Below, piece by piece: positions 31,329 to 60,241 of a stretch of DNA of 64,000 bases (its first letter is position 1; every line of letters starts with the position of its first letter). The stretch lies in IMG/VR virus record IMGVR_UViG_3300028920_000004, positions 31,765 to 95,764 of that record; one strand, written 5' to 3'. The translations under genes and the position numbers were made by a program. Under the pieces are notes generated by a model. It worked only from the letters and a program-made list of their open reading frames with translations. It was not told the origin of the DNA and did no database searches. This DNA comes from a virus.

Positions 31329-31922
31329 CTAACTTTGTACTAATCCTGATAATGAAAGCACTATAGCATCTGCGGTATCATTTTCAGAAATCTTTAATTC
31401 AAGACTTAATGCTTTATTTACATATTCCACAATTTCTTTTTTCAGTTGATGAGATTTCAGTTTCTTTTTAGATTTTTTAAACTTTACTTTTGCCCTCGCA
31501 GATGTAGGATTTATTAATGTAGCATTATTGGCTATCCTTTTTAATCTATCATAAGTTAATATGCCATTGTAAGATAATAATTTAGTAGTAAATACAGAAA
31601 AACCATAAAAACAATCCTCTATTTTAACAAAATCAAATTTATATTCTTGAGATAATTCGTCTTTAAATCTATCTAATTGCTCGGTAAAAAGGTCAACATT
31701 ATCTAAAGCTTTTTTAGTTTTGCTTTTTGATTTACGAGGAATATTAGGAACTGTTATTTTATGGGTTTTTTCTAATATTACATAAGAAGAAGTAGTTTTT
31801 ATTATAGCAAAAGCAGTATGATAAGTAGCGGTATCTGCCCCTATACTTGTTTTATTAGAATGTAACTTTACCCCAAGAAATTTCTCAACCGATTTTTTAC
31901 TTACTTTTTTTATATATTTCAT
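31329..31922 (-). CDS. RuvC-like Holliday junction resolvase
   Basis: IGADTA..TAFAII, KIED, P...R, NDTADAI. Confidence 0.8.
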   Translation of the reverse strand: MKYIKKVSKKSVEKFLGVKLHSNKTSIGADTATYHTAFAIIKTTSSYVILEKTHKITVPNIPRKSKSKTKKALDNVDLFTEQLDRFKDELSQEYKFDFVKIEDCFYGFSVFTTKLLSYNGILTYDRLKRIANNATLINPTSARAKVKFKKSKKKLKSHQLKKEIVEYVNKALSLELKISENDTADAIVLSLSGLVQS

Positions 31923-39927: not shown

Positions 39928-42087
39928 CTATCCTTTTATTACTCCAAGAGGTTCAAGCTCTACTAAAATTTTTACTAAATCTTTTTGATTTTCCATTACT
40001 ATGTCTATATCTTTATACGCAGAAGACGCTTCATCGAGGTCTTTCTTATTTCTTATAGAATGTATAATTCCTTTATTATCTAATCTTTTCTTTTCCTCTT
40101 CAAGATTTAAATTTTCTCTTGCTTTTGTTCTACTCATAGTTCTCCCTGCTCCATGAGAACAAGACATAAAACTTTCAGGATTTCCCAATCCTTCAATTAT
40201 ATAACTTTTAGTTCCTTGAGAACCTGGAATTATTCCTATCTGTCCTTTTCTGGCAGAAGTAGCACCTTTTCTATGTACCATTACATTATGTCCGAAGTGA
40301 TTTTCCATAGTTGCATAATTATGTGCTATGTTTATCATTTCATCAAAACTATCTATAAATTCATTATAACAAAGTCCATTTACATTATTTTTTGTAATTA
40401 TCTCCAAAAAAGAGCCTTTTATTCTCTCCATCATCAACTTCCTATTAGCTAAAGCAAAATCTACACAATAATTCATTTCTCTCAAATAGTCTTGTCCTTC
40501 TTTACTATCTAAAGGAAGAAAAGCCAAATCCCATTTAGGGTCTATTTTTGTATGCCATTTCTTATTAAGTTCTTTCGCTATTTCGTTGTAATGTCTTGCT
40601 ACTTTATATCCTAAATTTCTACTTCCGCTATGAAGCATTATCCAAATATGTCCATCAGAACCTTTCTGTATCTCTATGAAATGATTTCCTCCTCCAAGAG
40701 TGCCTAATTGTTTACGAGCAGAATCAAATTCTTTGCCTACAATAGAATTTCTAAAATTTAAATTAACAGTTGGCATAAGTATACCATCTTGTTTTCTCTT
40801 GTGATGACTAAATCCTACTGGAACTACGCTTCTAATTCCACCTTTATATTCTTTCGAACCTCCGAAAATTTTCTTTATTTGTTCTGGTGTAATATCTGTT
40901 AAGGACGTTTTTACAGCACACATACCACAATTTCCTGTAACAAATATTTTTCCATTTCTTCTTGCAATAAAATATCCAGTTTCAACAACAAAACAATATT
41001 TTTTAGCATTAGGGATTTTTATTTCTTTTGGTTTAGTAAATCCAACATATTTATTGTTAGTTTGATATACATTATACCAATCCTTCCAATTTTCGTTTTT
41101 GCTTGAATATTGATGTATATTTGCACGAATACCATTTATTGCACAAATATATTGAATAACATCTGCATTTGTTTTATTTGTTGTAGAATATACTTTATGA
41201 TTTCTTTTTTCATCAATACAACCATCCCAATGTAAATATTCATCAAAAACTATTTTTGCTTGATGTTGATTACATTTATATAAATTAATTAAACTTTTTT
41301 CACACTTCCAATCTAATGTAAAAATTATAGATACTATTCCATCCGAATTTTTATATTCAACAAAATCAACATTAGCATTTTTTAATAAAAATTTACTTCG
41401 ATTTATTTTTCTTTGTTTTTTCAAATGTAATTCAACAGAAGAACTATCTTTATTAGATTGTCTTATACAACCATCTGCTGAAACCATAATCATAATAGCT
41501 AATTGATTATCAGTCAAATCAATTCCCTTTTCATTAGTTGGAAAAGTAGTTCTAACAGAATAATAATCTCGTTTTTTTATTTTTAATAATTTTTCTTTAA
41601 AATCTCTACAAAAATAAGTATTATTTTTTTTGTTTTTACCATATCCTTCATATACTAACATCCTGTGTTCATCGCTTAAAACTTGGTCTAATCCATATTT
41701 ACTTTTATATTCTGTAAATTGTTCACAAGGTTTTACAATATACAACAAAGGGTTACTAAAAAAAGAAGTTTGATTATAATTATCCCACACCAACACCTTT
41801 TGGTTATTATATTTATCTATTGTAATCCATCCAACTTCAGTTAATATTTCTGTATCTTTATCAACAGCTCCAATATCTACCCCTACTGCATTTGGTATTA
41901 CAACTCCTTTAGTAGCTAAAACTCCACCAATAGGCATACCATAACCTTGATGGCTATCGGGCATTATTGCTATATGCTTAAAAGTAAAAGGAAGATTAGC
42001 TAAATTTTTAGCCTGTTCTAATGCTCCTTCTTCAATATTATTGAGCCATAATTTTATAGGTTTATTTTCACTATTTATTACTTTCAT
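39928..42087 (-). CDS. rtcB: RtcB RNA ligase interrupted by an intein
   Basis: MPDSHQGYGMPIGG, VGVDIG/CGM, GTLGGGNHFIE, HSGSR, HN, HRKGA, PGSQG, SHGAGR, DEASSAYK. Confidence 0.95.
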   Translation of the reverse strand: MKVINSENKPIKLWLNNIEEGALEQAKNLANLPFTFKHIAIMPDSHQGYGMPIGGVLATKGVVIPNAVGVDIGAVDKDTEILTEVGWITIDKYNNQKVLVWDNYNQTSFFSNPLLYIVKPCEQFTEYKSKYGLDQVLSDEHRMLVYEGYGKNKKNNTYFCRDFKEKLLKIKKRDYYSVRTTFPTNEKGIDLTDNQLAIMIMVSADGCIRQSNKDSSSVELHLKKQRKINRSKFLLKNANVDFVEYKNSDGIVSIIFTLDWKCEKSLINLYKCNQHQAKIVFDEYLHWDGCIDEKRNHKVYSTTNKTNADVIQYICAINGIRANIHQYSSKNENWKDWYNVYQTNNKYVGFTKPKEIKIPNAKKYCFVVETGYFIARRNGKIFVTGNCGMCAVKTSLTDITPEQIKKIFGGSKEYKGGIRSVVPVGFSHHKRKQDGILMPTVNLNFRNSIVGKEFDSARKQLGTLGGGNHFIEIQKGSDGHIWIMLHSGSRNLGYKVARHYNEIAKELNKKWHTKIDPKWDLAFLPLDSKEGQDYLREMNYCVDFALANRKLMMERIKGSFLEIITKNNVNGLCYNEFIDSFDEMINIAHNYATMENHFGHNVMVHRKGATSARKGQIGIIPGSQGTKSYIIEGLGNPESFMSCSHGAGRTMSRTKARENLNLEEEKKRLDNKGIIHSIRNKKDLDEASSAYKDIDIVMENQKDLVKILVELEPLGVIKG
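40930..41868 (-). mobile_element. 313-aa intein with LAGLIDADG homing endonuclease; Ala1 start (class-3-like)
   Basis: Inserted in VGVDIG|CGM; begins AVDKDTEILT, ends KYCFVVETGYFIARRNGKIFVTGN; LAGLIDADG blocks IMVSADGCI and YLHWDGCI. Confidence 0.92.
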
Positions 42088-47248: not shown

Positions 47249-48052
47249 TTATATTTTTTTATGATAAATTTCCGCAATATCATCTACAGTTGCTTTTAAA
47301 TATTTTACAGTAGTTTCAATATTAGAATGTCCTAATAATCGTCTTATCATTTCAATATTAAATCCTTTTTTCAACAAATGAATAGCAAAACTATGTCTAA
47401 AAGTATGAGGGCTAAATTTTTTGTTATACATTTTGCTTAATCTTTCTATAGAACATTTTAGTGCAGGGTAAGAAATATTGAAAGCATTATGTTTTTCTGG
47501 TTCTATTGAAAAATATTTTTCTAAAAGATTTTTAGTTTCTTTGTTAAATAATACTTTTCTTTCTTTATCTCCCTTGCCTTTAATAAGAGCTTCTTTTTTT
47601 TCTAAATTTATATCTTCTCTTTTTAGGTTTATCAATTCTTGTATTCTTACTCCTGTATAAAATAAAAAATACATAATAGTTTTATACTTTAAAACATTCC
47701 TAGTTTTAGTAATTTCTAAATCAGGTATTAGTTCTTCTAATAGAAATTTTTCAGAAAAATAATTTGGTAATTTATTCTCTGTTTTTAATATTTTTGGAGT
47801 TTCTATATCTTTTTCTAAGAAATTTACAAAAGAATTTAAAGCATTTATATAAGTATTTATTGTAGAATTTTTATGATATTTTTTTAATTCTAAAATGAAA
47901 TTATTTATGGAATTTTTGTTGATTTTTTTAGGATTTTTTTGTAAAAATCTTTTAATATTTCCTGTATATTTTATGATGGTTTTCTCAGATTTTCCTTTAA
48001 TTATTAACCAATTTTTGAAATTTTTTATCAAAGTTTTTCTTATTTTTTTCAT
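47249..48052 (-). CDS. Tyrosine recombinase (compact XerA/XerD-like)
   Basis: TGVRIQEL, GKGDKER, PHTFRHSFA, LLGHSNIETTVKY (R-K-H-R-H-Y all present). Confidence 0.95.
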   Translation of the reverse strand: MKKIRKTLIKNFKNWLIIKGKSEKTIIKYTGNIKRFLQKNPKKINKNSINNFILELKKYHKNSTINTYINALNSFVNFLEKDIETPKILKTENKLPNYFSEKFLLEELIPDLEITKTRNVLKYKTIMYFLFYTGVRIQELINLKREDINLEKKEALIKGKGDKERKVLFNKETKNLLEKYFSIEPEKHNAFNISYPALKCSIERLSKMYNKKFSPHTFRHSFAIHLLKKGFNIEMIRRLLGHSNIETTVKYLKATVDDIAEIYHKKI

Positions 48053-48662
48053 TATTTTTTCCTATATTTTTGTAAAAAATCTCGTAATATATGTATTTTA
48101 TTATTATTATCAGTTTCCTCTAATATTAGCCACATGGTATAGATATATATCTCGGCAGGTATAAGCCCTTCCTTCATAAATTGGTTTAACTCTTTATCAT
48201 TAAACAAGTTAGATATATTTAATTTGGTATTAATTTCTTTAATGGTTTTATATGGTTTTTTTAATTTCTCTATTGCTATCTTGCCTAATAAGGAATTTAT
48301 CCATAATTCTGCTTCTTTTTTGTTAGATTTTTCTCGATTTTTTATTAATTTTTCTAAGAATTTTTTGTCTTTTTTTGATAAATTTTTGACATTTTTTTGA
48401 TAGTTTTTTAAGAAATTTAAGCTTTCATTTTCTAATTTTATTTTAAATTTTTTATTCATTTTTTGCTCCTTAAATTTACCCATTGTGTTGTAATATTAAT
48501 AGCTTCTTTCCAATTAGATGCTTGTCTTATTGCATTTGTAAAACCCCTTCTTGCAGGTTTTGAAGGAAATAATTTTCTTTTCATTTGACCATGTACTTTT
48601 CCTTCTATATCAATAGTATCTTCGCATTTTGATATATCAACAAAAAGATTGGGATATTTCAT
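48052..48662 (-). other. Two hypothetical ORFs (48052-48483, 48456-48662)
   Basis: ORF track; coupled stops and starts. Confidence 0.5.
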
Positions 48663-48674
48663 TTTAACTCCTAT

Positions 48675-48767
48675 TTATTTTAATAATTCTTTACCTTTAT
48701 TTTTAATGTTATACATAAGGTCTGCAAAAATTATTGATAATACTATGGTAGCTAATATATAATTCAT
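48675..48767 (-). CDS. 30-aa single-TM peptide
   Basis: MNYILATIVLSIIFADLMYNIKNKGKELLK*; AGGAGG upstream. Confidence 0.55.
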   Translation of the reverse strand: MNYILATIVLSIIFADLMYNIKNKGKELLK

Positions 48768-48789
48768 TTTTATCCTCCTATTTTTTACT

Positions 48790-48924
48790 TTAATTTAATA
48801 TAGTACCTGTAAATAAAATCATAATTACAATAGACAGAAAACATAGCCAATATTTTTTTAGAATTATCCCCAAACTAAAAAGTTGTCCTAATATCATCCC
48901 TATTCCTAGCCACATCAGTATCAT
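48790..48924 (-). CDS. 44-aa two-TM peptide
   Basis: MILMWLGIGMILGQLFSLGIILKKYWLCFLSIVIMILFTGTILN*; AGGAGG upstream. Confidence 0.6.
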   Translation of the reverse strand: MILMWLGIGMILGQLFSLGIILKKYWLCFLSIVIMILFTGTILN

Positions 48925-48925
48925 T

Positions 48926-50044
48926 TTATCCTCCTATTTCTTTAAGTAATTTTTTTCCTTTATTTGTAATAATACGAGAAGGCACTCTTTCTAAATAATT
49001 AAATTCTGCCAAAAATGGTTCATATTCTCTTAAATAATGAGACTGTCCTATACCAACTTTTTGAGAAAGGGCGTTAGCACCTATAGGTCTTTTTTGTTCA
49101 TTTAAAACTTTCAAGATTTTAATATCCAGATTAGTTAATCCATTCTTTATTATATGTCTATTTTGTAATACTCTTTTTAAATTTTGTTCTACTATATAAT
49201 CTTCTAATAAAGATATAGCGGTTCTTGGATTAAATTTAGCATTTTTGGATAGTTTTAATAAGGTTTCTTCTGATATATTTTCATTAGGATAGAGTTGTTG
49301 TTTATATTGTCGGATTATTTTAGCAATTTCTTCAGAAGAATATCTAACAAATTGGATATGATGTGGAATTCTATCAAGAGTATCTGGATTGTTTTTAATA
49401 AGAAGGTGTTTATTAATAGTAGCAGAAGCAAATATAAAAGGTTTTATTTTCTTACCATTAATTTTATACTGTTCAATTATAGGATTTAATATCTTAATAA
49501 CTTTCCAGTCCATAGTATCAAATTCATCTATAAACAATATTACAAATTTTTCTTTGGAGGTATTTATTTCATTAATAATATCTACCAAACTATCTTCATC
49601 TATCTGTTTACCTATCCTTGATATTAATTTTGCTCCGAGAGTTTTAGCAAATAATTCTACCCAAGTAGTTTTGCCATGGCCTTTAATAGCCGATAAAAGA
49701 AAATGACTTCTTATACCTCTTTTGGCTTTTTTCATAATAGTTTGGGCTTGTTCTTTGGCGAATTCTTGGCCTATAAATTGTTCCCAAGTTTGAGGTCTAA
49801 ATTCAAATTTCTTTATTTCTTTTCCTTTATATTCAATAATTCTATTAACATCTACACTATTATTTTTTATTTTAACATTTATAGGTTTATCTTCTTGTGG
49901 TATTGTTTTTATCTCTTTCCTATTCCAAGTAATTTCTTCACCATCAAAATTATCACCAGATGCTTCAAAAGTATAATCTATCAAACCTCCCCCTGCTCTA
50001 TATAGTATAAAAAATATTAAAAACAATGCTAAAATAATTCCCAT
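48926..50044 (-). CDS. RuvB-like AAA+ ATPase with N-terminal transmembrane segment
   Basis: FRPQTWEQFIGQE, GHGKTT, FIDE, NPRTA, winged-helix G.NAL...EPFL; N-terminus MGIILALFLIFFILY. Confidence 0.85.
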   Translation of the reverse strand: MGIILALFLIFFILYRAGGGLIDYTFEASGDNFDGEEITWNRKEIKTIPQEDKPINVKIKNNSVDVNRIIEYKGKEIKKFEFRPQTWEQFIGQEFAKEQAQTIMKKAKRGIRSHFLLSAIKGHGKTTWVELFAKTLGAKLISRIGKQIDEDSLVDIINEINTSKEKFVILFIDEFDTMDWKVIKILNPIIEQYKINGKKIKPFIFASATINKHLLIKNNPDTLDRIPHHIQFVRYSSEEIAKIIRQYKQQLYPNENISEETLLKLSKNAKFNPRTAISLLEDYIVEQNLKRVLQNRHIIKNGLTNLDIKILKVLNEQKRPIGANALSQKVGIGQSHYLREYEPFLAEFNYLERVPSRIITNKGKKLLKEIGG

Positions 50045-50423: not shown

Positions 50424-51026
50424 TTATTTTTTTTCTTTTTCTCTTTTTTCTTTTTCCCATTTTTCTATATCTCCTTCTACTACTGTAAATAAAGGGTGAG
50501 GTTTTATATTTTCATATTTATTTCTAATGCTGACCATATTTTTCCACCACATTTCTTTGTCTCTTTTGTGTAATTTTTCAGTTAAATGATTAAACTCATA
50601 TTCTAATTGTCCTTTTGTTACTGTTAAAAATTTTGGACAAGAATATGTTTTATTTATTTTATTAAAATCAAATTTATATCCTCTCTTATCGGCTTCATGC
50701 CAGATAATATTAAGATAATAACCAATTGCTCTGATAGGGTCTTTGCTTTCTTTGAAGCGAGTTAATTGAGGGTGATTATAATAAGGAGTTTTTATTTTGC
50801 CTTTTCCTTTACATTTAGGACAAATTTTATTGATTTTAATATAATTTCCATAATTAAGAGTATAAAATATTTTACCATTCTTACATTTCCTACCTGTTTC
50901 ATCTATTCTATCGCAATTTGTATATTCTCCTTTTAACAATACAGATTGAGCTAATAAACCTTCAGACCAACAAGCTACTAAACCTTTTCTATCCAAATAG
51001 GAAGGAGATAATGACCATAAACGCAT
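50424..51026 (-). CDS. Pyrimidine-dimer DNA glycosylase / endonuclease V family, with zinc-finger insert
   Basis: MRLWSL.P.YLDRKGLVA.W.EGLLAQ, NHPQL.RF, EADKRGYKFD, VTKGQLEYE, PHPLF. Confidence 0.88.
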   Translation of the reverse strand: MRLWSLSPSYLDRKGLVACWSEGLLAQSVLLKGEYTNCDRIDETGRKCKNGKIFYTLNYGNYIKINKICPKCKGKGKIKTPYYNHPQLTRFKESKDPIRAIGYYLNIIWHEADKRGYKFDFNKINKTYSCPKFLTVTKGQLEYEFNHLTEKLHKRDKEMWWKNMVSIRNKYENIKPHPLFTVVEGDIEKWEKEKREKEKK

Positions 51027-52277: not shown

Positions 52278-53051
52278 TTATCCTTTCTTAATTATTTCTT
52301 TTAATATATTATGAGTAGTTTTATCATATATATTTTCTTTTTGGGCATATCTTACCGCTATATCTAAAGACTTAAAATCTTTACATCCTATATTTAATAC
52401 ATATTTATCTTCATTTTTATATACTATAATAGGATATTGATATATCCCATATAAACATATTACTTTCCTAAATACAAATTTTCCATATTTACATCCTTTA
52501 CCAAAACTACACCTTTCACCAAAACTACACTCTACACCAAAACTACACCTTTCACCAAAACTACACCTTTCACCAAAACTACACTCTACACCAAAACTAC
52601 ACTCTACACCAAAACTACACCTTTCACCAAAACTACAATATTTACCAAAACTACACCTTTCACCAAAACTACAATATTTACCAAAACTACACCTTTCACC
52701 AAAACTACACTCTACACCAAAACTACACTCTACACCAAAACTACACCTTTCACCAAAACTACACTCTACACCAAAACTACACTCTACACCAAAACTACAA
52801 TATTTACCAAAACTACACCTTTTACCAAAACTACTCCACTCACCAAAACTACACTCTACACCAAAACTACAATATTTACCAAAACTACACCTTTCACCAA
52901 AACTACAATATTTACCAAAACTACACCTTTCACCAAAACTACACCTTTCAGGAAATACTTTTATATCAGTATAATCTCCAGTAGGACAATTTTTTATACC
53001 ATATTCGTCTCTTGGTATATTATCAAATTCTTTTTGAGTATATTTTTTCAT
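52278..53051 (-). CDS. Hexapeptide-repeat (beta-helix) protein; start likely M12 (53051)
   Basis: 25 xxCSFG repeats; AAGGAAG upstream of ATG 53051. Confidence 0.8.
   Translation of the reverse strand: MKKYTQKEFDNIPRDEYGIKNCPTGDYTDIKVFPERCSFGERCSFGKYCSFGERCSFGKYCSFGVECSFGEWSSFGKRCSFGKYCSFGVECSFGVECSFGERCSFGVECSFGVECSFGERCSFGKYCSFGERCSFGKYCSFGERCSFGVECSFGVECSFGERCSFGERCSFGVECSFGERCSFGKGCKYGKFVFRKVICLYGIYQYPIIVYKNEDKYVLNIGCKDFKSLDIAVRYAQKENIYDKTTHNILKEIIKKG
52500..52949. repeat. Tandem repeat, 25 x 18 bp (accaaaactaca + cctttc / ctctac / atattt)
   Basis: Read directly; encodes ERCSFG / VECSFG / KYCSFG. Confidence 0.95.
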
Positions 53052-55589
53052 AATTTCTTCCTTATCTAATTTAATTGAGGACAAAATTCTTTTGTTTTCA
53101 TTTTTTTTTTATTCCTTTTTTTAAAGTTATCTTCATCTCACCATTTGCTTTTGAGGTTAGCCAAAAAACCATATCATTAAAAGAATAAATACTATCCAAT
53201 TTAGAGTGCCATGTATTTTCCACAACCATTCATTTGTAGTCTTGTGAGGTCTAATTCCTCTTATTTGATGTTTCCATATTGCCATAATTAAATTTCCTTT
53301 CCCCATTTTTCTTCCATTTTAGATTTTTTATTTGTAGAATATATTGCCCAAGTAATAGAAAATATTGCCACGTTTACTATAAAAATTTCAAGCCCATATA
53401 TAATTATTAATTGTAGATTATTCATCTTTAGCCTTTCTATATTATTCCGTTTTCCTTAAATTCATCTGTTAAATTAAATTTTTTTGCAAGTCTTATAAAA
53501 TACTTTTGCCATTGTGATAATTCCATATAACTTATTGATTGTTTACTTTGTTTATGTTGCCAATCAATAGCAATTTGTCTTGCTTCTTCTTTTGTTTTAA
53601 CTGTATTAGGATTAAGCATTATATTTTCCTTTCTTTAACAAAAAGGTTCTCCAGATTTTAAATATCTATCTAATGCTTCTCTAAATTCTTCTCTTTCATC
53701 TTCTTTAGAAGTAAAATATATAATAAAATTATCTATTATATCTCTTATTTTATCATAATATTCTACTTCTTCAAGTTCCCATTGTCCATAATCTAAAATC
53801 CATTGTAATTTTGCTTCTTCATCTTCTTTATAGGTATTAAGAAATTCCCATATATTCTCATAATATTCTCCATTATCTTTTTGTCCTTCATAATCAATAC
53901 TGTGATATTCTGCTAACTGCACTACTACATCTGCTTTTGTTTTAAATACTGCTCCGTCAGAAAAATATCTTACATCAAATTGTAAATCTCTTATTCTATA
54001 TGCCATTATTTTCTTCTCCTATAATATTTCCATTTTCATCTTCTATTACTATTTTTACTATTTCAAAACTATCTTCTACATATTCTTTTGGTAATTCTAC
54101 ATTTTGTAAATATTCTTCGCTATCTTCATTATTAGGTATTTCATATTCCAAATTAACATTAACTATTCCTAACCTTCTTATTTTCATTTTTATTTCTCCT
54201 TAAATTGTTAAAGGTTCTCTTTTATCTAAATTAACTTTATGTTTAATTTGTGCTTTTACTTTCTTATTATGTTTCTTTATAGCTTCCTTTATATAATAGT
54301 CTATACTTCTTTGTGCTTTTTTTATCATATCGTCTGTATCTCCAAAAAATCCCCAACAACTATCTATATGTTCTCCTTCTTTATTTTCTGCTACAAATCC
54401 GTAAACTTGTCCACTTAAATAATCATCATAAGTATTTACTTCTCCTTCTAAAACTTTCATAGCCCTTTCTTTTATTCTCTTCGTGATATTCTTTACTCCA
54501 AAATTTCTTTGTATGTCTTCTTTAGTTAGATAAATAAACCCTACTTGTCCACTATCAAACCTTGCATGACCCTGCGGAAGACCACAACCATAAAAACTTC
54601 CTATTTTAAGTCTCAATCCGCTATGGTCGTAAAGATAAAGAGGAGCAATTATAATTGCACCTTCCTTATTTATAAGGTGTTCTCTCAATTCTTCCCAACC
54701 TTCAAACATATCAGACGTTAAATCTGTTTTATCTCCTAAATCATATCTACCATGAAAACATACCATATGCCCGAAATTATCCCATTCTCTAGGATTTTCA
54801 GGATTTTCGTCTAAATGGATTTTTATAACCTGTCCTTTGTATTCTTCTTCTTGTATAGTATACATATTATTTTATCCTTTCTAATTCCCTTTCATTATAT
54901 TCTAGTTGTAATTCGTTATCATTATAGTTTTTATATCCTTTAAACCCATTTTCCAATATTTGTCCTAAATACCACACATCATTAATATTTATGTTGTCTT
55001 TGATATTTACAATATCATCTTCTACTAAACTTAATATTATGCTTTGTCTTTTCAATTCATTCATTTCTTCCTCCTATTATAGTTATATATTGTTGATAAT
55101 CGGGATTATTTTCTTCTTCGACTTCCTTAATAAGAAGGTTTTGTATTTCGTTTTCTTCTTGTTCTCTTTCAAGCCAATTCATAATTTATCCTTATTTTAA
55201 ATTTGTTAATTTTTTTATTTTATATATGTTAAACAAATCCAAATCCATAACATAATTATACAAATGTAATTTACTTTTACCCATGAAGGAAAATTAAGTT
55301 CTATTTTAAAATCGTTTTCTATAAAATTAACCAAAGGAGGTATTGTTTTAATAAATAATATTCCACCAAAAATATAAAATATCCAATTCATTTTATTTTA
55401 TCCTTTCCATACATTTACATTTAATTCCCAATAAATTTTATATTCTCCATTATACAAATGTCCAGAAGTATATCCTTCTGCTATTTGTTTTGTTATTTCT
55501 TCTCTATCTAATTCTGTTAATTTATGATAATTATTTTCAAATTCAATTTTCTTTTTAGGCATTTTTTATTCCTTTCTATTTTCAAAATA

Positions 55590-55618: not shown

Positions 55619-57222
55619 GAGGAAATTTCTTACTATTTTATTCTTAATCATTTTTCTAATATATTTCCAAGTATTGTTTCTTTTTTTAATAGTTTATGTA
55701 TCATCTTTTATTCCTTTCTTATATATTATTTTATATTAATTTTTTCAATAAATTTAACACAAGAAAAATCTTTTTCTTCCACTTTCCATGCTTTTGATAA
55801 TAGAGTATTACAATTATCACATTTTTCTCCATATTTATTGAGTACATCTGTATATTCTTTTCCGCAATTTTCACAATACATTATTCTATATTTCATTTTT
55901 TATTTTCCTTTCTCTGTTATATATACTTTCATTTAGAGTATAATGCCTATCTTCTTTTAAATTCAAATATATAGTTATTATTGACTTGACATTATTTATT
56001 ACAAGAATAATATCAAAAATTTCATTATAAGCTAACCTAAAACAAGCCTTAATTATTATATTATTTTCTTCATAATACTCAAAAATATTTCCAACTCTTA
56101 ATTGCCTTTCCTTAATATATAGTAATAGACCTGTTTTATCTATATTCCTATATTTCAAATTGTCAAGAGTATGTTTAGTAAACTGCCATTGTTTATTATT
56201 AAGATTATCACAAAAAGCGGATAATCTTTCTTGGTTATTTATAGGAAAGTATATTTTTTTATGGTATCGTTTCATAATATTTTAACCCTCATAATCTGGA
56301 TAATCATATTCATATATCTGTTCAATTATCCCTTTCTCTTAATTTTGTCTATAAATATAATAAGTCTCTCCGTTTACTTCTTCCTCATCTTCGCTACTGT
56401 CATATCTATTGAGACAATTACCCCTTCCATTAATTCTTGCGTCTTCTTTCCATGCTTCCCTATCGAAATATTTTTCGACGTGTTCGGGTATCTCTAAACA
56501 TTCGTCAATATAACTTTCAAGCTGTTCATCTTCTTTTTCGTCGGCTTCATCATCAGTACAGACAAGATATTCCTGTCCTGCGTATTCGTAAAGGCAATCT
56601 CCATAATCACTTTCTTTTATATCTTCCTGTGCTTCATAAGGAGATATTTGTAAATGTTTTCCCAATGCGATAATTTTTTCATCTTCAATATCTTCCCAAG
56701 ATATATCGTTATCTTGGTTTATTTCTCTTTCTGCGTTTTCTATATTTTCAATAGCATTACATATATTGTTTATTTCTTCCTCTATATTGTCGGGCAAAGG
56801 TCTATATAGCCAAGATGTTCCGTATTTATACCCACAAATCGGACAAGCCTTGCCTAAAAATCCTTTTTCATGGTCTTTTGGATATACCCAAGAAGCCAAT
56901 ATACCTTTTTCGTCTCTATTTGCATGAGAATTTGGCAATTCTTCGGGATTTATTCTTATATCTTGCCATTTATCTTGATGAATACAACCTGCGTTCATAT
57001 CGTTTAAATGATATTTTTTCCAAAGGTCTATCAATGCGTTTTGAGGTTCATTTTTAGGTTCGATACTATCTAAACATTGCCCCATACTTCCTTTATATTC
57101 ACCGCTTGCAGAAAATACTAGTCCTTTTTCCTGCTGTTCAAGATTAACTTCTACAACTGCTAAATTACCTTTTTTGTCTTTAAATTTTACTATTCTTTTC
57201 ATTTTTAAAATCTCCTTTACTT

Positions 57223-58869: not shown

Positions 58870-60241
58870 ATGTTACTTGATTGGGCGAAAACAGAAAACG
58901 GACAAAAAGAAGCGAGTAATTTAATTTGTAATTTGCAAAAATATAGTATAAAAAAATATGCAGGTGAAAAAATAACTTCTGATAATTTTTTAAAATATGA
59001 GTTATCTTTTTGTAAATATAAATTGAATGGTAAAATATACAAAGGCTTTTTTACTAAAAAAGATATAAATGATATTTTTAAAATCCTTGATTATTACCCT
59101 GGACATATAATATCTTTAACTGGATAATAAAAAATGAATACTAATAATTCAAACCATGCTAGAGGCTATAAAATAAGACGTAAAAATCATTATATAGATA
59201 CACCTTGGATTATTACATCTTGCAAAAGTATATATAAAAAAAGTATAAATAGAGGACATAAAACCGTATTAATTAAAAAGAAGGGATAAAAGACTATGAA
59301 AAAAAATAAAAGTCAGATTTTGGAAGGTATAACGGAGGATATAAAATCTTCAAAATTTATTGCCAATAATACATTAATGATACATTACAAAAATGGTATA
59401 ACCGCTTATAGATTACACAATACGGATATAATCCGTATAAATACCAGTAATGGCAATATAACTTTAAATAATGGAGGATATAAAACATCTACCACAAAAA
59501 ACCGTATAAATCAGTTTACACCTTCAAATTTTTATTTATACCAAAAAAATCATATATGGTATATAAACACTCTAAAAGAAAAGTTTAGTTTTTATAATGG
59601 TATTACTTTTGATTTACAAGGCAATTTATTATCAGAAAATAAAACGGTAAACATTAAAGAAGTAAACAAAATCAAAAAAAGTATAAAAAAATATGTAAAT
59701 TTAATTGATAAATGCGAAAAAATCCCTGTACCTTCTAATGGTGATTGCTGGTATTGTTCAATGAAAGTTCAAAATACAGGTAAAAATTTAGGGGATAAAA
59801 TCCAAAATATCGACCATTTAAAATCCCATATAAAAGAAAATTATTTACATGGCAGTATTTTATATAATGCCATGATAGAATACGGTTATAACACTTATCA
59901 AATAGGAATACATTATAATATAAATTCAAGAGATACCTTTAAACGTGCATTAAAAAAATACTTATATAAAAGATTATTAAAGGATAATTTCAATGTATAG
60001 AATATATACAGAAAATACAAAAATAAAAACTATAAAAAGACTATGTAATAATAACTTAAATGGATATACTTTAATAAAAAGTCAAGGTATATGGCAAGGA
60101 AAAGAAGAAAAAAGCATAATAATTGAAGTTGAAGGAGCAAGGAAAAAACAAATGATACATTTATCAAAGTTATTAAAAAAAGCACTAAAACAGGAAGTAA
60201 TCTTACTGCAAGAATTAAAAACAAAAAATCAACTAATATAA
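58870..60241 (+). other. Rightward early ORFs (58870-59127, 59296-60000, 59993-60241)
   Basis: ORF track; SD sites. Confidence 0.6.

Follow-up and report, generated by a model that had tools for sequence, protein, structure and literature searches.

In the stretch of viral DNA analysed here, a window of 64,000 nucleotides (positions 31,765 to 95,764 of the IMG/VR record IMGVR_UViG_3300028920_000004), the minus strand carries at 48926–50044 a gene for a RuvB-like AAA+ ATPase of 372 amino acids (aa) that begins with a hydrophobic helix. Across related phage loci this gene is tied to the gene of an Xer-type tyrosine recombinase, which lies about 0.9 kb downstream in the present genome, and the partnership of the motor and recombinase genes is obligate and mutual. 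The initial annotation of the region, made from the sequence alone, described a membrane-anchored RuvB-like motor followed by two tiny membrane peptides and overlooked the recombinase, the actual conserved partner. With moderate confidence we interpret the ATPase as a dedicated partner of this recombinase, i.e. as a RuvA-independent, usually tethered pump for double-stranded DNA with an FtsK-XerCD-like logic.

The evidence for the partnership comes from the gene neighbourhoods. A search with the single sequence found no related viral loci, and an alignment-based search was needed to collect them. In all 39 close loci with at least 2 kb of downstream flank, a homologous recombinase gene follows the motor gene on the same strand at a gap of 0–2.2 kb. 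When the comparison was restricted to dereplicated loci flanked on either side by 3.5 kb or more, the recombinase proved to be the sole neighbour found in 17 of 17, whereas other families reach at most 9 of 17 and stand on varying sides. Distant lineages of the family retain it as well (3 of 3; 210–272 bits, contigs of 25–70 kb). By comparison, none of 63 loci of other phage RuvB-like ATPases has a recombinase within 5 kb. The reverse test gave the same picture: a motor lies upstream of 20 of the 21 recombinases of the subfamily (at least 180 bits, over 2 kb upstream), including motors that score 140–230 bits, and the single exception has a flank of only 2.2 kb. In several loci (L023, L024, L212/L301) the two genes abut or overlap, and the homologue P0133 is a single protein of 627 aa, in which a RuvB-like part (residues 8–296) is fused head-to-tail to a complete recombinase (residues 336–610). 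A search for longer relatives of this kind returned only intein-bearing forms, and P0133 was not in the viral collection.

The recombinase gene (47249–48052) codes for 267 aa that are filled by a SAM-like and a Phage_integrase domain (Pfam Phage_integrase, E 2e-27), and it is the only tyrosine recombinase gene in the genome. Its best NCBIfam match is archaeal XerA, with 186 bits over 263 of 263 positions against a cut-off of 220. The scores for XerC (140 bits versus 335) and XerD (126 versus 330) likewise remain below the equivalog cut-offs, and judged by these profiles the enzyme is placed in a separate Xer-like subfamily. Its layout is of the Xer type, i.e. a core-binding and a catalytic domain with the catalytic R-K-H-R-H/W-Y set and without an arm-binding domain. 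R136, K160, R219, H242 and Y251 are each kept in 37–38 of 38 sequences, and H216 is invariant in an alignment of eight recombinases. In two lineages, L008/L300 (4329–6131) and L214, the recombinase ORF (open reading frame) has about 600 aa instead of about 265 and is extended or carries an insertion.

The three ORFs called in the initial annotation (48926–50044, 48790–48924 and 48675–48767) were found again on the minus strand. The 372-aa ORF is followed by ORFs of 44, 30, 68 and 143 aa and then by the gene of the tyrosine recombinase, all tightly packed and with Shine-Dalgarno sites. The features of the module are as follows:

48926–50044, minus strand: RuvB-like AAA+ ATPase, 372 aa, composed of anchor helix, linker, N-extension, AAA+ domain, lid and winged helix
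49964–50044, minus strand: N-terminal helix, residues 1–27, with an uncharged hydrophobic run (1–15), R16 and a juxtamembrane segment; predicted N-out/C-in signal anchor
49889–49963, minus strand: disordered acidic linker, residues 28–52, variable in length and sequence within the family
49796–49888, minus strand: family-specific N-extension, residues 53–83, consensus P.KV.IK....D.SKI.EY.GE..KKFEF, absent from cellular RuvB
48790–48924, minus strand: lineage-specific 44-aa ORF in which two segments are hydrophobic; its translation is coupled to that of the RuvB-like gene
48675–48767, minus strand: lineage-specific 30-aa ORF, composed of a single hydrophobic segment and a tail of basic residues
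48456–48662, minus strand: 68-aa ORF without a family match; lineage-specific insert in the module
48052–48483, minus strand: all-alpha accessory protein, 143 aa as called, directly upstream of the recombinase; novel family
47249–48052, minus strand: Xer-type tyrosine recombinase, 267 aa, with SAM-like N-domain and catalytic domain and no arm-binding domain

The 372-aa protein is a true but diverged relative of RuvB and not a RuvB orthologue. Pfam recognises RuvB_N (E 4.6e-12, residues 83–196) and the C-terminal winged helix of RuvB (E 3.3e-10, residues 300–368), both over the cut-off, and a profile built from 35 family members aligns end to end with T. maritima RuvB (E 2.7e-28, residues 84–370 against 19–325). 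When the AlphaFold model (predicted local distance difference test, pLDDT, 84.9) was submitted to Foldseek, RuvB structures ranked best, with E 1e-20 and target TM-scores of 0.76–0.81, and the runners-up, clamp loaders (RFC) and ORC/Cdc6, followed at about 1e-10, i.e. some 10 orders behind. The match to the RuvB structures begins at residue 84. Pfam, the family profile and Foldseek thereby agree on the three-domain architecture of RuvB, consisting of AAA+ alpha/beta domain, lid and C-terminal winged helix, and bear out the RuvB-type AAA+ domain and winged helix that had been read from the sequence. The divergence is reflected in an identity to cellular RuvB of 21–28% and in equivalog scores below the cut-offs (NF000868, 108.4 bits versus 282; TIGR00635, 99.1 versus 299).

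All ATPase motifs are intact. K125 (Walker A), D173/E174 (Walker B), T209 (sensor 1), R225 and P273/R274 (sensor 2) are invariant in the alignment of 35 family sequences, and they correspond to K64, the DE pair, T158, R170 and P216/R217 of T. maritima RuvB. The roles of these aligned residues, including that of R170 as the arginine finger, we take to be those known from mutant structures of the T. maritima protein. R353 and R357 in the hairpin of the winged helix are invariant in the same alignment. In P. aeruginosa RuvB the arginines R314, R317 and R319 of the winged-helix beta-hairpin contact DNA (PMC10071043); two of these three positions are kept as R353 and R357, and the middle one has no counterpart in the family when aligned with T. 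maritima RuvB. At least nine homologues harbour inteins at or near the P-loop, which were inserted independently. Since this is the kind of site that inteins occupy in indispensable enzymes, the ATPase site presumably matters.

The intein-bearing homologues (P0121, P0122, P0169, P0183, P0193 and P0270–P0274) feature LAGLIDADG or HNH homing endonucleases, and in the two sequences that were read the intein splits the P-loop as G-[intein]-CGKT. One of them, P0271 (684 aa), is encoded on a 7.8-kb contig binned in a metagenome-assembled genome of a 'Candidatus Helarchaeota archaeon', and the partner recombinase of the motor is closest to archaeal XerA. This may be a weak hint about the host, or a binning artefact.

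Other assignments of the ATPase were considered and rejected. A clamp loader, the best PHROG label, is ruled out because RuvB beats RFC and DnaX by about 10 orders in fold and profile comparisons and because the C-terminal domain is the RuvB winged helix. An ORC/Cdc6-like initiator was dismissed by the same margin and the same domain. Pfam and fold searches returned AAA+ matches of the RuvB type only, and no RecA-type FtsK_SpoIIIE motor domain. Among the PADLOC defence models no module protein had a significant match; the ATPase gave marginal P-loop matches (E about 1e-3), the five other proteins none at all.

Several lines of evidence support the view that the motor descends from RuvB and has been repurposed, probably without any use of RuvA. 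In the complete 95.8-kb genome, a search that included positive controls gave no match at E ≤ 1 to RuvA_N, RuvA_C or RuvC, which extends the absence of ruvA noted earlier for the window. In RuvB, a 'feature beta-hairpin' binds domain III of RuvA (PMC10272136). The corresponding region of T. maritima RuvB includes 8+4 residues that have no counterpart in the family profile, i.e. the docking hairpin is about 12 residues shorter. In line with this, Walker B and sensor 1 are separated by 37–39 residues in the family as compared with 44–49 in canonical-type RuvBs, and the AlphaFold model has no extended hairpin at the RuvA-docking position. It is the absence of RuvA from the genome, the truncated hairpin and the score of 108 bits against an equivalog cut-off of 282 that together argue for RuvA independence, and the suggestion of a repurposed RuvB-derived motor holds on the same grounds. 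The motor may conceivably use the RuvA of its host, though the docking hairpin is truncated. The initial annotation had named homologues that lack the anchor and pair with RuvA as evidence against its own reading. Anchor-less homologues do exist, making up about 40% of the wider family, and a pairing with RuvA was seen for none of these in the loci examined.

The N-terminal anchor was assessed from Kyte-Doolittle hydropathy windows, flanking charge and the structure model rather than with a dedicated transmembrane predictor. Residues 1–15 are uncharged and hydrophobic, a run that is short for the family, and the model has a confident helix at residues 2–27 (pLDDT about 90), so the hydrophobic N-terminal helix described earlier was recovered. 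It is followed by a disordered stretch (residues 28–61, pLDDT below 50). Linkers in the family comprise 6–56 aa and are net acidic, and this region aligns poorly. As an anchor could be an artefact of the start site, the alternatives to the annotated ATG were inspected. This codon has an AAGGAAG Shine-Dalgarno sequence 8 nt upstream, and the previous stop is 15 nt away. A TTG at codon 21 follows its GGAGG at a distance of only 1 nt, and use of the next ATG, codon 104, would cut into the conserved core. Because the Shine-Dalgarno spacing is good at the first ATG, too close at the TTG and the remaining candidate is within the core, translation almost certainly begins at the annotated start.

A hydrophobic N-terminus is present in 92 of 120 close homologues, with diverged sequence, in 42 of the 65 dereplicated loci with complete genes and in 110 of 181 members of the wider family (about 60%); anchored members also occur in the deep lineages L285, L288 and L292. 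As the anchor is kept while its sequence diverges, selection seems to act on hydrophobicity, and these data support the anchor as a selected feature and not a start-site artefact. Across family members the uncharged run starts at residue 1–2, and its median length is 18 aa. The charge is about 0 before the run and net +1.6 after it (positive in 88%). By the positive-inside rule this would place the motor in the cytoplasm, and the predicted topology is N-out/C-in with the motor at the cytoplasmic face of the membrane. A cleavable signal peptide was rejected, as the hydrophobic run is not preceded by a positive n-region, the net charge after it is positive, and a domain that depends on ATP and DNA must be cytoplasmic.

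After the helix, 47 of 110 anchored members have a [FWY]-h-x-x-P-h motif (4.9 expected), and 9 of 71 anchor-less members begin with the motif (1.4 expected). Anchor-less N-termini (for example those of P0166, P0181, P0182 and L297–L299) are often short amphipathic peptides such as 'MGFxxWLxxPL' or 'MDFLDILGI...', the former resembling the juxtamembrane motif of the anchored proteins; these peptides may be peripheral membrane or partner-binding elements. The idea of a split anchor, i.e. a separate small membrane ORF accompanying anchor-less members, was discarded because small hydrophobic ORFs are rare (6 of 45 modules). On a tree of the core domain the anchor state changes at least 8 times, compared with 21 in shuffles, and one anchor-less clade has 12 members. 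From this distribution, tethering is judged to be common and old, yet dispensable.

Directly upstream of the recombinase lies the gene of a small all-alpha protein (48052–48483), whose likely start is M9, giving 135 aa instead of 143 aa. Diverged members of its family occur in at least 25 of 43 modules, usually between motor and recombinase. The model (pLDDT 89.8) comprises eight helices. It gave neither a Pfam family nor an atlas lead nor a Foldseek match, and the best Z of the VIA wide aligner was 6.0, to generic helices only. The accessory family accompanies 24 of 33 anchored motors as compared with 3 of 24 anchor-less ones (Fisher p 9e-6, a value that ignores phylogeny and profile sensitivity).

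The two tiny ORFs behind the motor gene have a different standing. Both possess a perfect AGGAGG hexamer, 5 nt before the ATG of the 44-aa ORF and 6 nt before that of the 30-aa ORF, as had been pointed out; on the coding strand this hexamer occurs at 28 sites (9 expected), 15 of which precede starts. The ORFs of 44, 30 and 68 aa have no homologue in 90 related loci, the 44-aa ORF has no match in Pfam, PHROG or PADLOC, and any small hydrophobic ORF at that position is found in only 6 of 45 modules. Both tiny ORFs are probably real genes of this phage that stand outside the conserved machine. Of the proposed conserved set of anchored RuvB plus peptides, the anchor is retained and the peptides are not, and we do not count them as part of a conserved unit.

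It is instructive to compare the motor with known systems. Cellular RuvB (PDB 1in4/1in8, 7pbl, 8efv) shares with it the AAA+/lid/winged-helix fold (TM-score up to 0.81), all ATPase motifs and the R..P.R hairpin of the winged helix. Unlike its cellular relatives, the phage motor has about 83 additional N-terminal residues (membrane helix, acidic linker and conserved extension) and is encoded beside a tyrosine recombinase instead of ruvA, in a genome without RuvA and RuvC. Other phage RuvB-like ATPases, of about 300 aa, have the same Pfam domains and are often labelled 'Holliday junction helicase' or 'clamp loader'. However, they score below 110 bits against the family profile, lack the N-terminal extension and the anchor, and are without a recombinase in all 63 loci. 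A large separate group of such proteins of about 300 aa (L215–L273, 'MS..IRPSKF..IIGQ...') has neither anchor nor neighbouring recombinase.

A second point of reference is FtsK, in which an N-terminal membrane domain and a low-complexity linker precede a hexameric double-stranded DNA motor and a C-terminal winged helix (PMC5391129), and which activates XerD by protein contact (PMC9226527). FtsK-XerCD and SpoIIIE-type pumps thus resemble the phage system in membrane anchor, linker, DNA motor, C-terminal winged helix and the tie to an Xer-type enzyme; the anchor-plus-linker layout is analogous and not homologous. The motors themselves differ, as the phage protein has the AAA+ RuvB fold and FtsK the RecA-type FtsK/HerA fold. 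The phage protein has one helix in place of several membrane spans, and its winged helix is domain III of RuvB and not a separate gamma domain. Moreover, the recombinase is phage-encoded and adjacent, and no KOPS-like or dif-like sites were identified. The likeness would be convergent, and the functional tie is suggested by gene linkage only.

A mobile element that carries its own Xer activator has a precedent in phage TLC-phi: its XafT is a phage-encoded XerD activation factor that is independent of FtsK and reportedly activates host XerD and helps to form synaptic complexes (PMC9226527). The candidate activator of the present module differs in being a full AAA+ motor whose recombinase is phage-encoded as well. 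Like TnsC, MuB and IstB, the motor is an AAA+ ATPase encoded beside a DNA-rearranging enzyme with which it would work. TnsC, MuB and IstB come from different AAA+ lineages and, instead of pumping target DNA, form polymers on it. Their catalytic partners are DDE transposases, in contrast to the catalytically intact Xer-type enzyme that accompanies the RuvB fold here. In Tn6022-like elements the TnsC partner TnsF has a tyrosine-recombinase fold (PMC10293859).

From these results we infer a ring that pumps DNA and is in physical contact with the recombinase, as well as a biological purpose, along the following lines. The motor, a phage-specific RuvB descendant, would form an ATP-driven ring on double-stranded phage DNA. 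In this phage and in about 60% of its relatives, the N-terminal signal-anchor helix and the flexible acidic linker would hold it at the cytoplasmic face of the membrane, and the tether would provide the fixed point, the role that RuvA plays for cellular RuvB. The tethered ring may load on phage DNA and reel it in up to the recombinase bound at its site, where it would activate or remodel the recombination synapse. The outcome, early in infection, would be phage genomes that are unlinked or are circles of unit length. In most lineages the small all-alpha protein would join the module. A bolder version, which we put forward tentatively, is that tailed phages have reinvented the FtsK-XerCD principle on a RuvB scaffold, with a tethered ring that switches on a dedicated recombinase and a helical adaptor. 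If true, this would be the first known case of an AAA+ motor in control of a tyrosine recombinase, and the tether would have replaced RuvA as the fixed point.

Several observations weigh against a dedicated, FtsK-like partner of the recombinase. About 40% of the family has no anchor, so the tether is not essential to the core function. The winged helix of RuvB is an integral DNA-contacting part of the ring, unlike the free sensor domain FtsK-gamma, and only two of the three DNA-contacting winged-helix arginines of P. aeruginosa RuvB are kept. The fusion protein P0133 is a singleton on one 9-kb contig, and an error of sequencing or gene calling may have joined two abutting genes. As the phages compared are related to each other, the linkage counts do not represent independent events, though the neighbourhood is otherwise fluid. 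Finally, within 5 kb on either side a recombination site did not emerge from the inverted repeats near the module, nor from 12-mers shared across 75 dereplicated loci, all of which were coding, nor from Xer-style palindromes with recurring arms in 38 loci, the best arm of which recurred in only three other loci.

The main rival explanation retains the partnership of motor and recombinase and makes it a new Holliday-junction resolvasome, in which the RuvB-like ring migrates branches without RuvA and the recombinase replaces RuvC by conservative strand exchange. Its purpose would be to clear the branched DNA of UvsX-type recombination-dependent replication before packaging. We consider both the resolvasome and this purpose doubtful. 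The phage has a UvsX-like recombinase and SbcC, and RuvC, endonuclease VII, RusA and Hjc were not found in its genome, in a resolvase search that covered these four types. The RuvB architecture and two winged-helix arginines are kept in the motor, and the linkage, a tight one, is to a strand-exchange enzyme that naturally handles Holliday junctions. However, tyrosine recombinases act at specific core sites, and we know of none that serves as a general junction resolvase; moreover, the membrane anchor gets no obvious role. If the recombinase were instead an ordinary lysogeny integrase, the AAA+ and accessory proteins could be helpers of integration and excision, in target capture or directionality, as MuB, TnsC and IstB are. 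Short tyrosine recombinases often are integrases, the small helical protein directly upstream is in an excisionase-like position, and AAA+ regulators of DNA-insertion enzymes exist, e.g. TnsC with its tyrosine-recombinase-like target selector TnsF (PMC10293859). Yet two pattern-limited scans of about 186,000 prokaryotic species genomes turned up no member of the family, and hence no prophage copy; the first pattern returned no member, and for the second all 120 stretches sampled among the matches listed were false. Nor was a repressor or another lysogeny gene recognised near the module. The recombinase is without an arm-binding domain and most similar to the Xer families, and the fold of the ATPase is that of RuvB and not of the MuB, IstB or TnsC types. 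We therefore regard an integrase with its helpers as unlikely.

Two further readings assign the recombinase no part in the action of the motor. The ATPase could be a general RuvA-independent helicase for branch migration or fork remodelling in replication and repair, next to the recombinase merely by inherited gene order. Its gene does have early genes on one side and the replication block on the other, with a pyrimidine-dimer glycosylase nearby, and since all loci are from related phages, synteny alone could mislead. What makes this very unlikely is that the upstream neighbours are common to only 0–2 of 90 loci and the spacer holds 0–5 unrelated ORFs, yet the pair is never separated; the pairing holds in both directions in members diverged to 140–230 bits, is absent from all 63 other phage RuvB-like genes, and includes one fused protein (P0133). 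The initial annotation had favoured a membrane complex of the motor and the two tiny peptides, for pulling in the genome, anchoring replication or superinfection exclusion. The anchor is indeed real and conserved, both hydrophobic peptides have strong ribosome-binding sites and show translational coupling to the motor, and the module is on the early side of the leftward block. Nevertheless, we find this complex hardly credible: the peptides have no homologue in the 90 loci and even a small hydrophobic ORF is seen in just 6 of 45 modules, PADLOC returned no defence match, the invariant recombinase partner is left unexplained, and a motor must be made before it can pull in its own genome. No sign in favour of genome uptake, replication anchoring or superinfection exclusion was found.

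The viral record is complete at 95,764 bp, and the window is its right-hand two-thirds. Its ends are identical over 115 bp (positions 1–115 and 95650–95764). This 'direct terminal repeat' of the record looks like the overlap of a circular assembly and not like a true long terminal repeat, and its borders need not be the true packaging ends. The module lies within a long leftward block on the minus strand that starts at a divergent region near 59,000 of the window, and in which small early genes are followed by the motor/recombinase module and then by replication genes (RtcB-PhoH, primase-helicase, UvsX-like recombinase, PolB and SbcC). A scan for promoters and terminators gave a signal no higher than the shuffled expectation.

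Some other genes of the region have unusual features. The DenV-type pyrimidine-dimer DNA glycosylase (50424–51026, minus strand) has its 81-position profile spread across 124 residues, implying a Cys-rich insert of about 45 residues with a zinc-ribbon-like look. A 268-aa protein (52278–53084, minus strand) is built from the unit 'CSFGxxCSFG', repeated in tandem about 25 times, and matches zf-CCCH_2 (E 6e-14). The gene at 39928–42087 (minus strand) codes for a 719-aa fusion of an N-terminal PhoH-like ATPase and a C-terminal RtcB RNA ligase. In the early region, a 287-aa protein (56339–57202, minus strand) has a weak match to the anti-restriction protein ArdA (E 9e-4, below cut-off). In the related loci L006 (4171–4653), L007 (3415–3933) and L009 (4522–5004), ORFs just upstream of the motor resemble GGDEF-type diguanylate cyclases by eye ('...IDIDxFKxxNDxxGHxxGD...').

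Tailed phages commonly encode RuvB-like ATPases, which go by generic names. A comparative review mentions them only to say that the RuvC of jumbo phages is not coupled to one (PMC7824862), and full-text literature searches returned no description of a membrane-anchored RuvB-like protein and none of a tyrosine recombinase that has an AAA+ motor, of the RuvB type or any other, as its partner. Hundreds of phage genes bear the labels 'Holliday junction helicase RuvB' or 'clamp loader'. One large coherent subset of them is neither: its members are without RuvA and the RuvA-docking element, usually anchored, and genetically inseparable from an Xer-type recombinase. The first reading of this locus is corrected accordingly, with the recombinase as the partner and the tiny peptides as bystanders. 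If the coupling is physical, it would be a second, convergent case of motor-controlled site-specific recombination beside FtsK-XerCD. It would also offer a compact system of two or three genes, whose reconstitution in vitro could be used to study the gating of strand exchange by a DNA pump, and a natural experiment in which the same motor occurs with and without a membrane tether.

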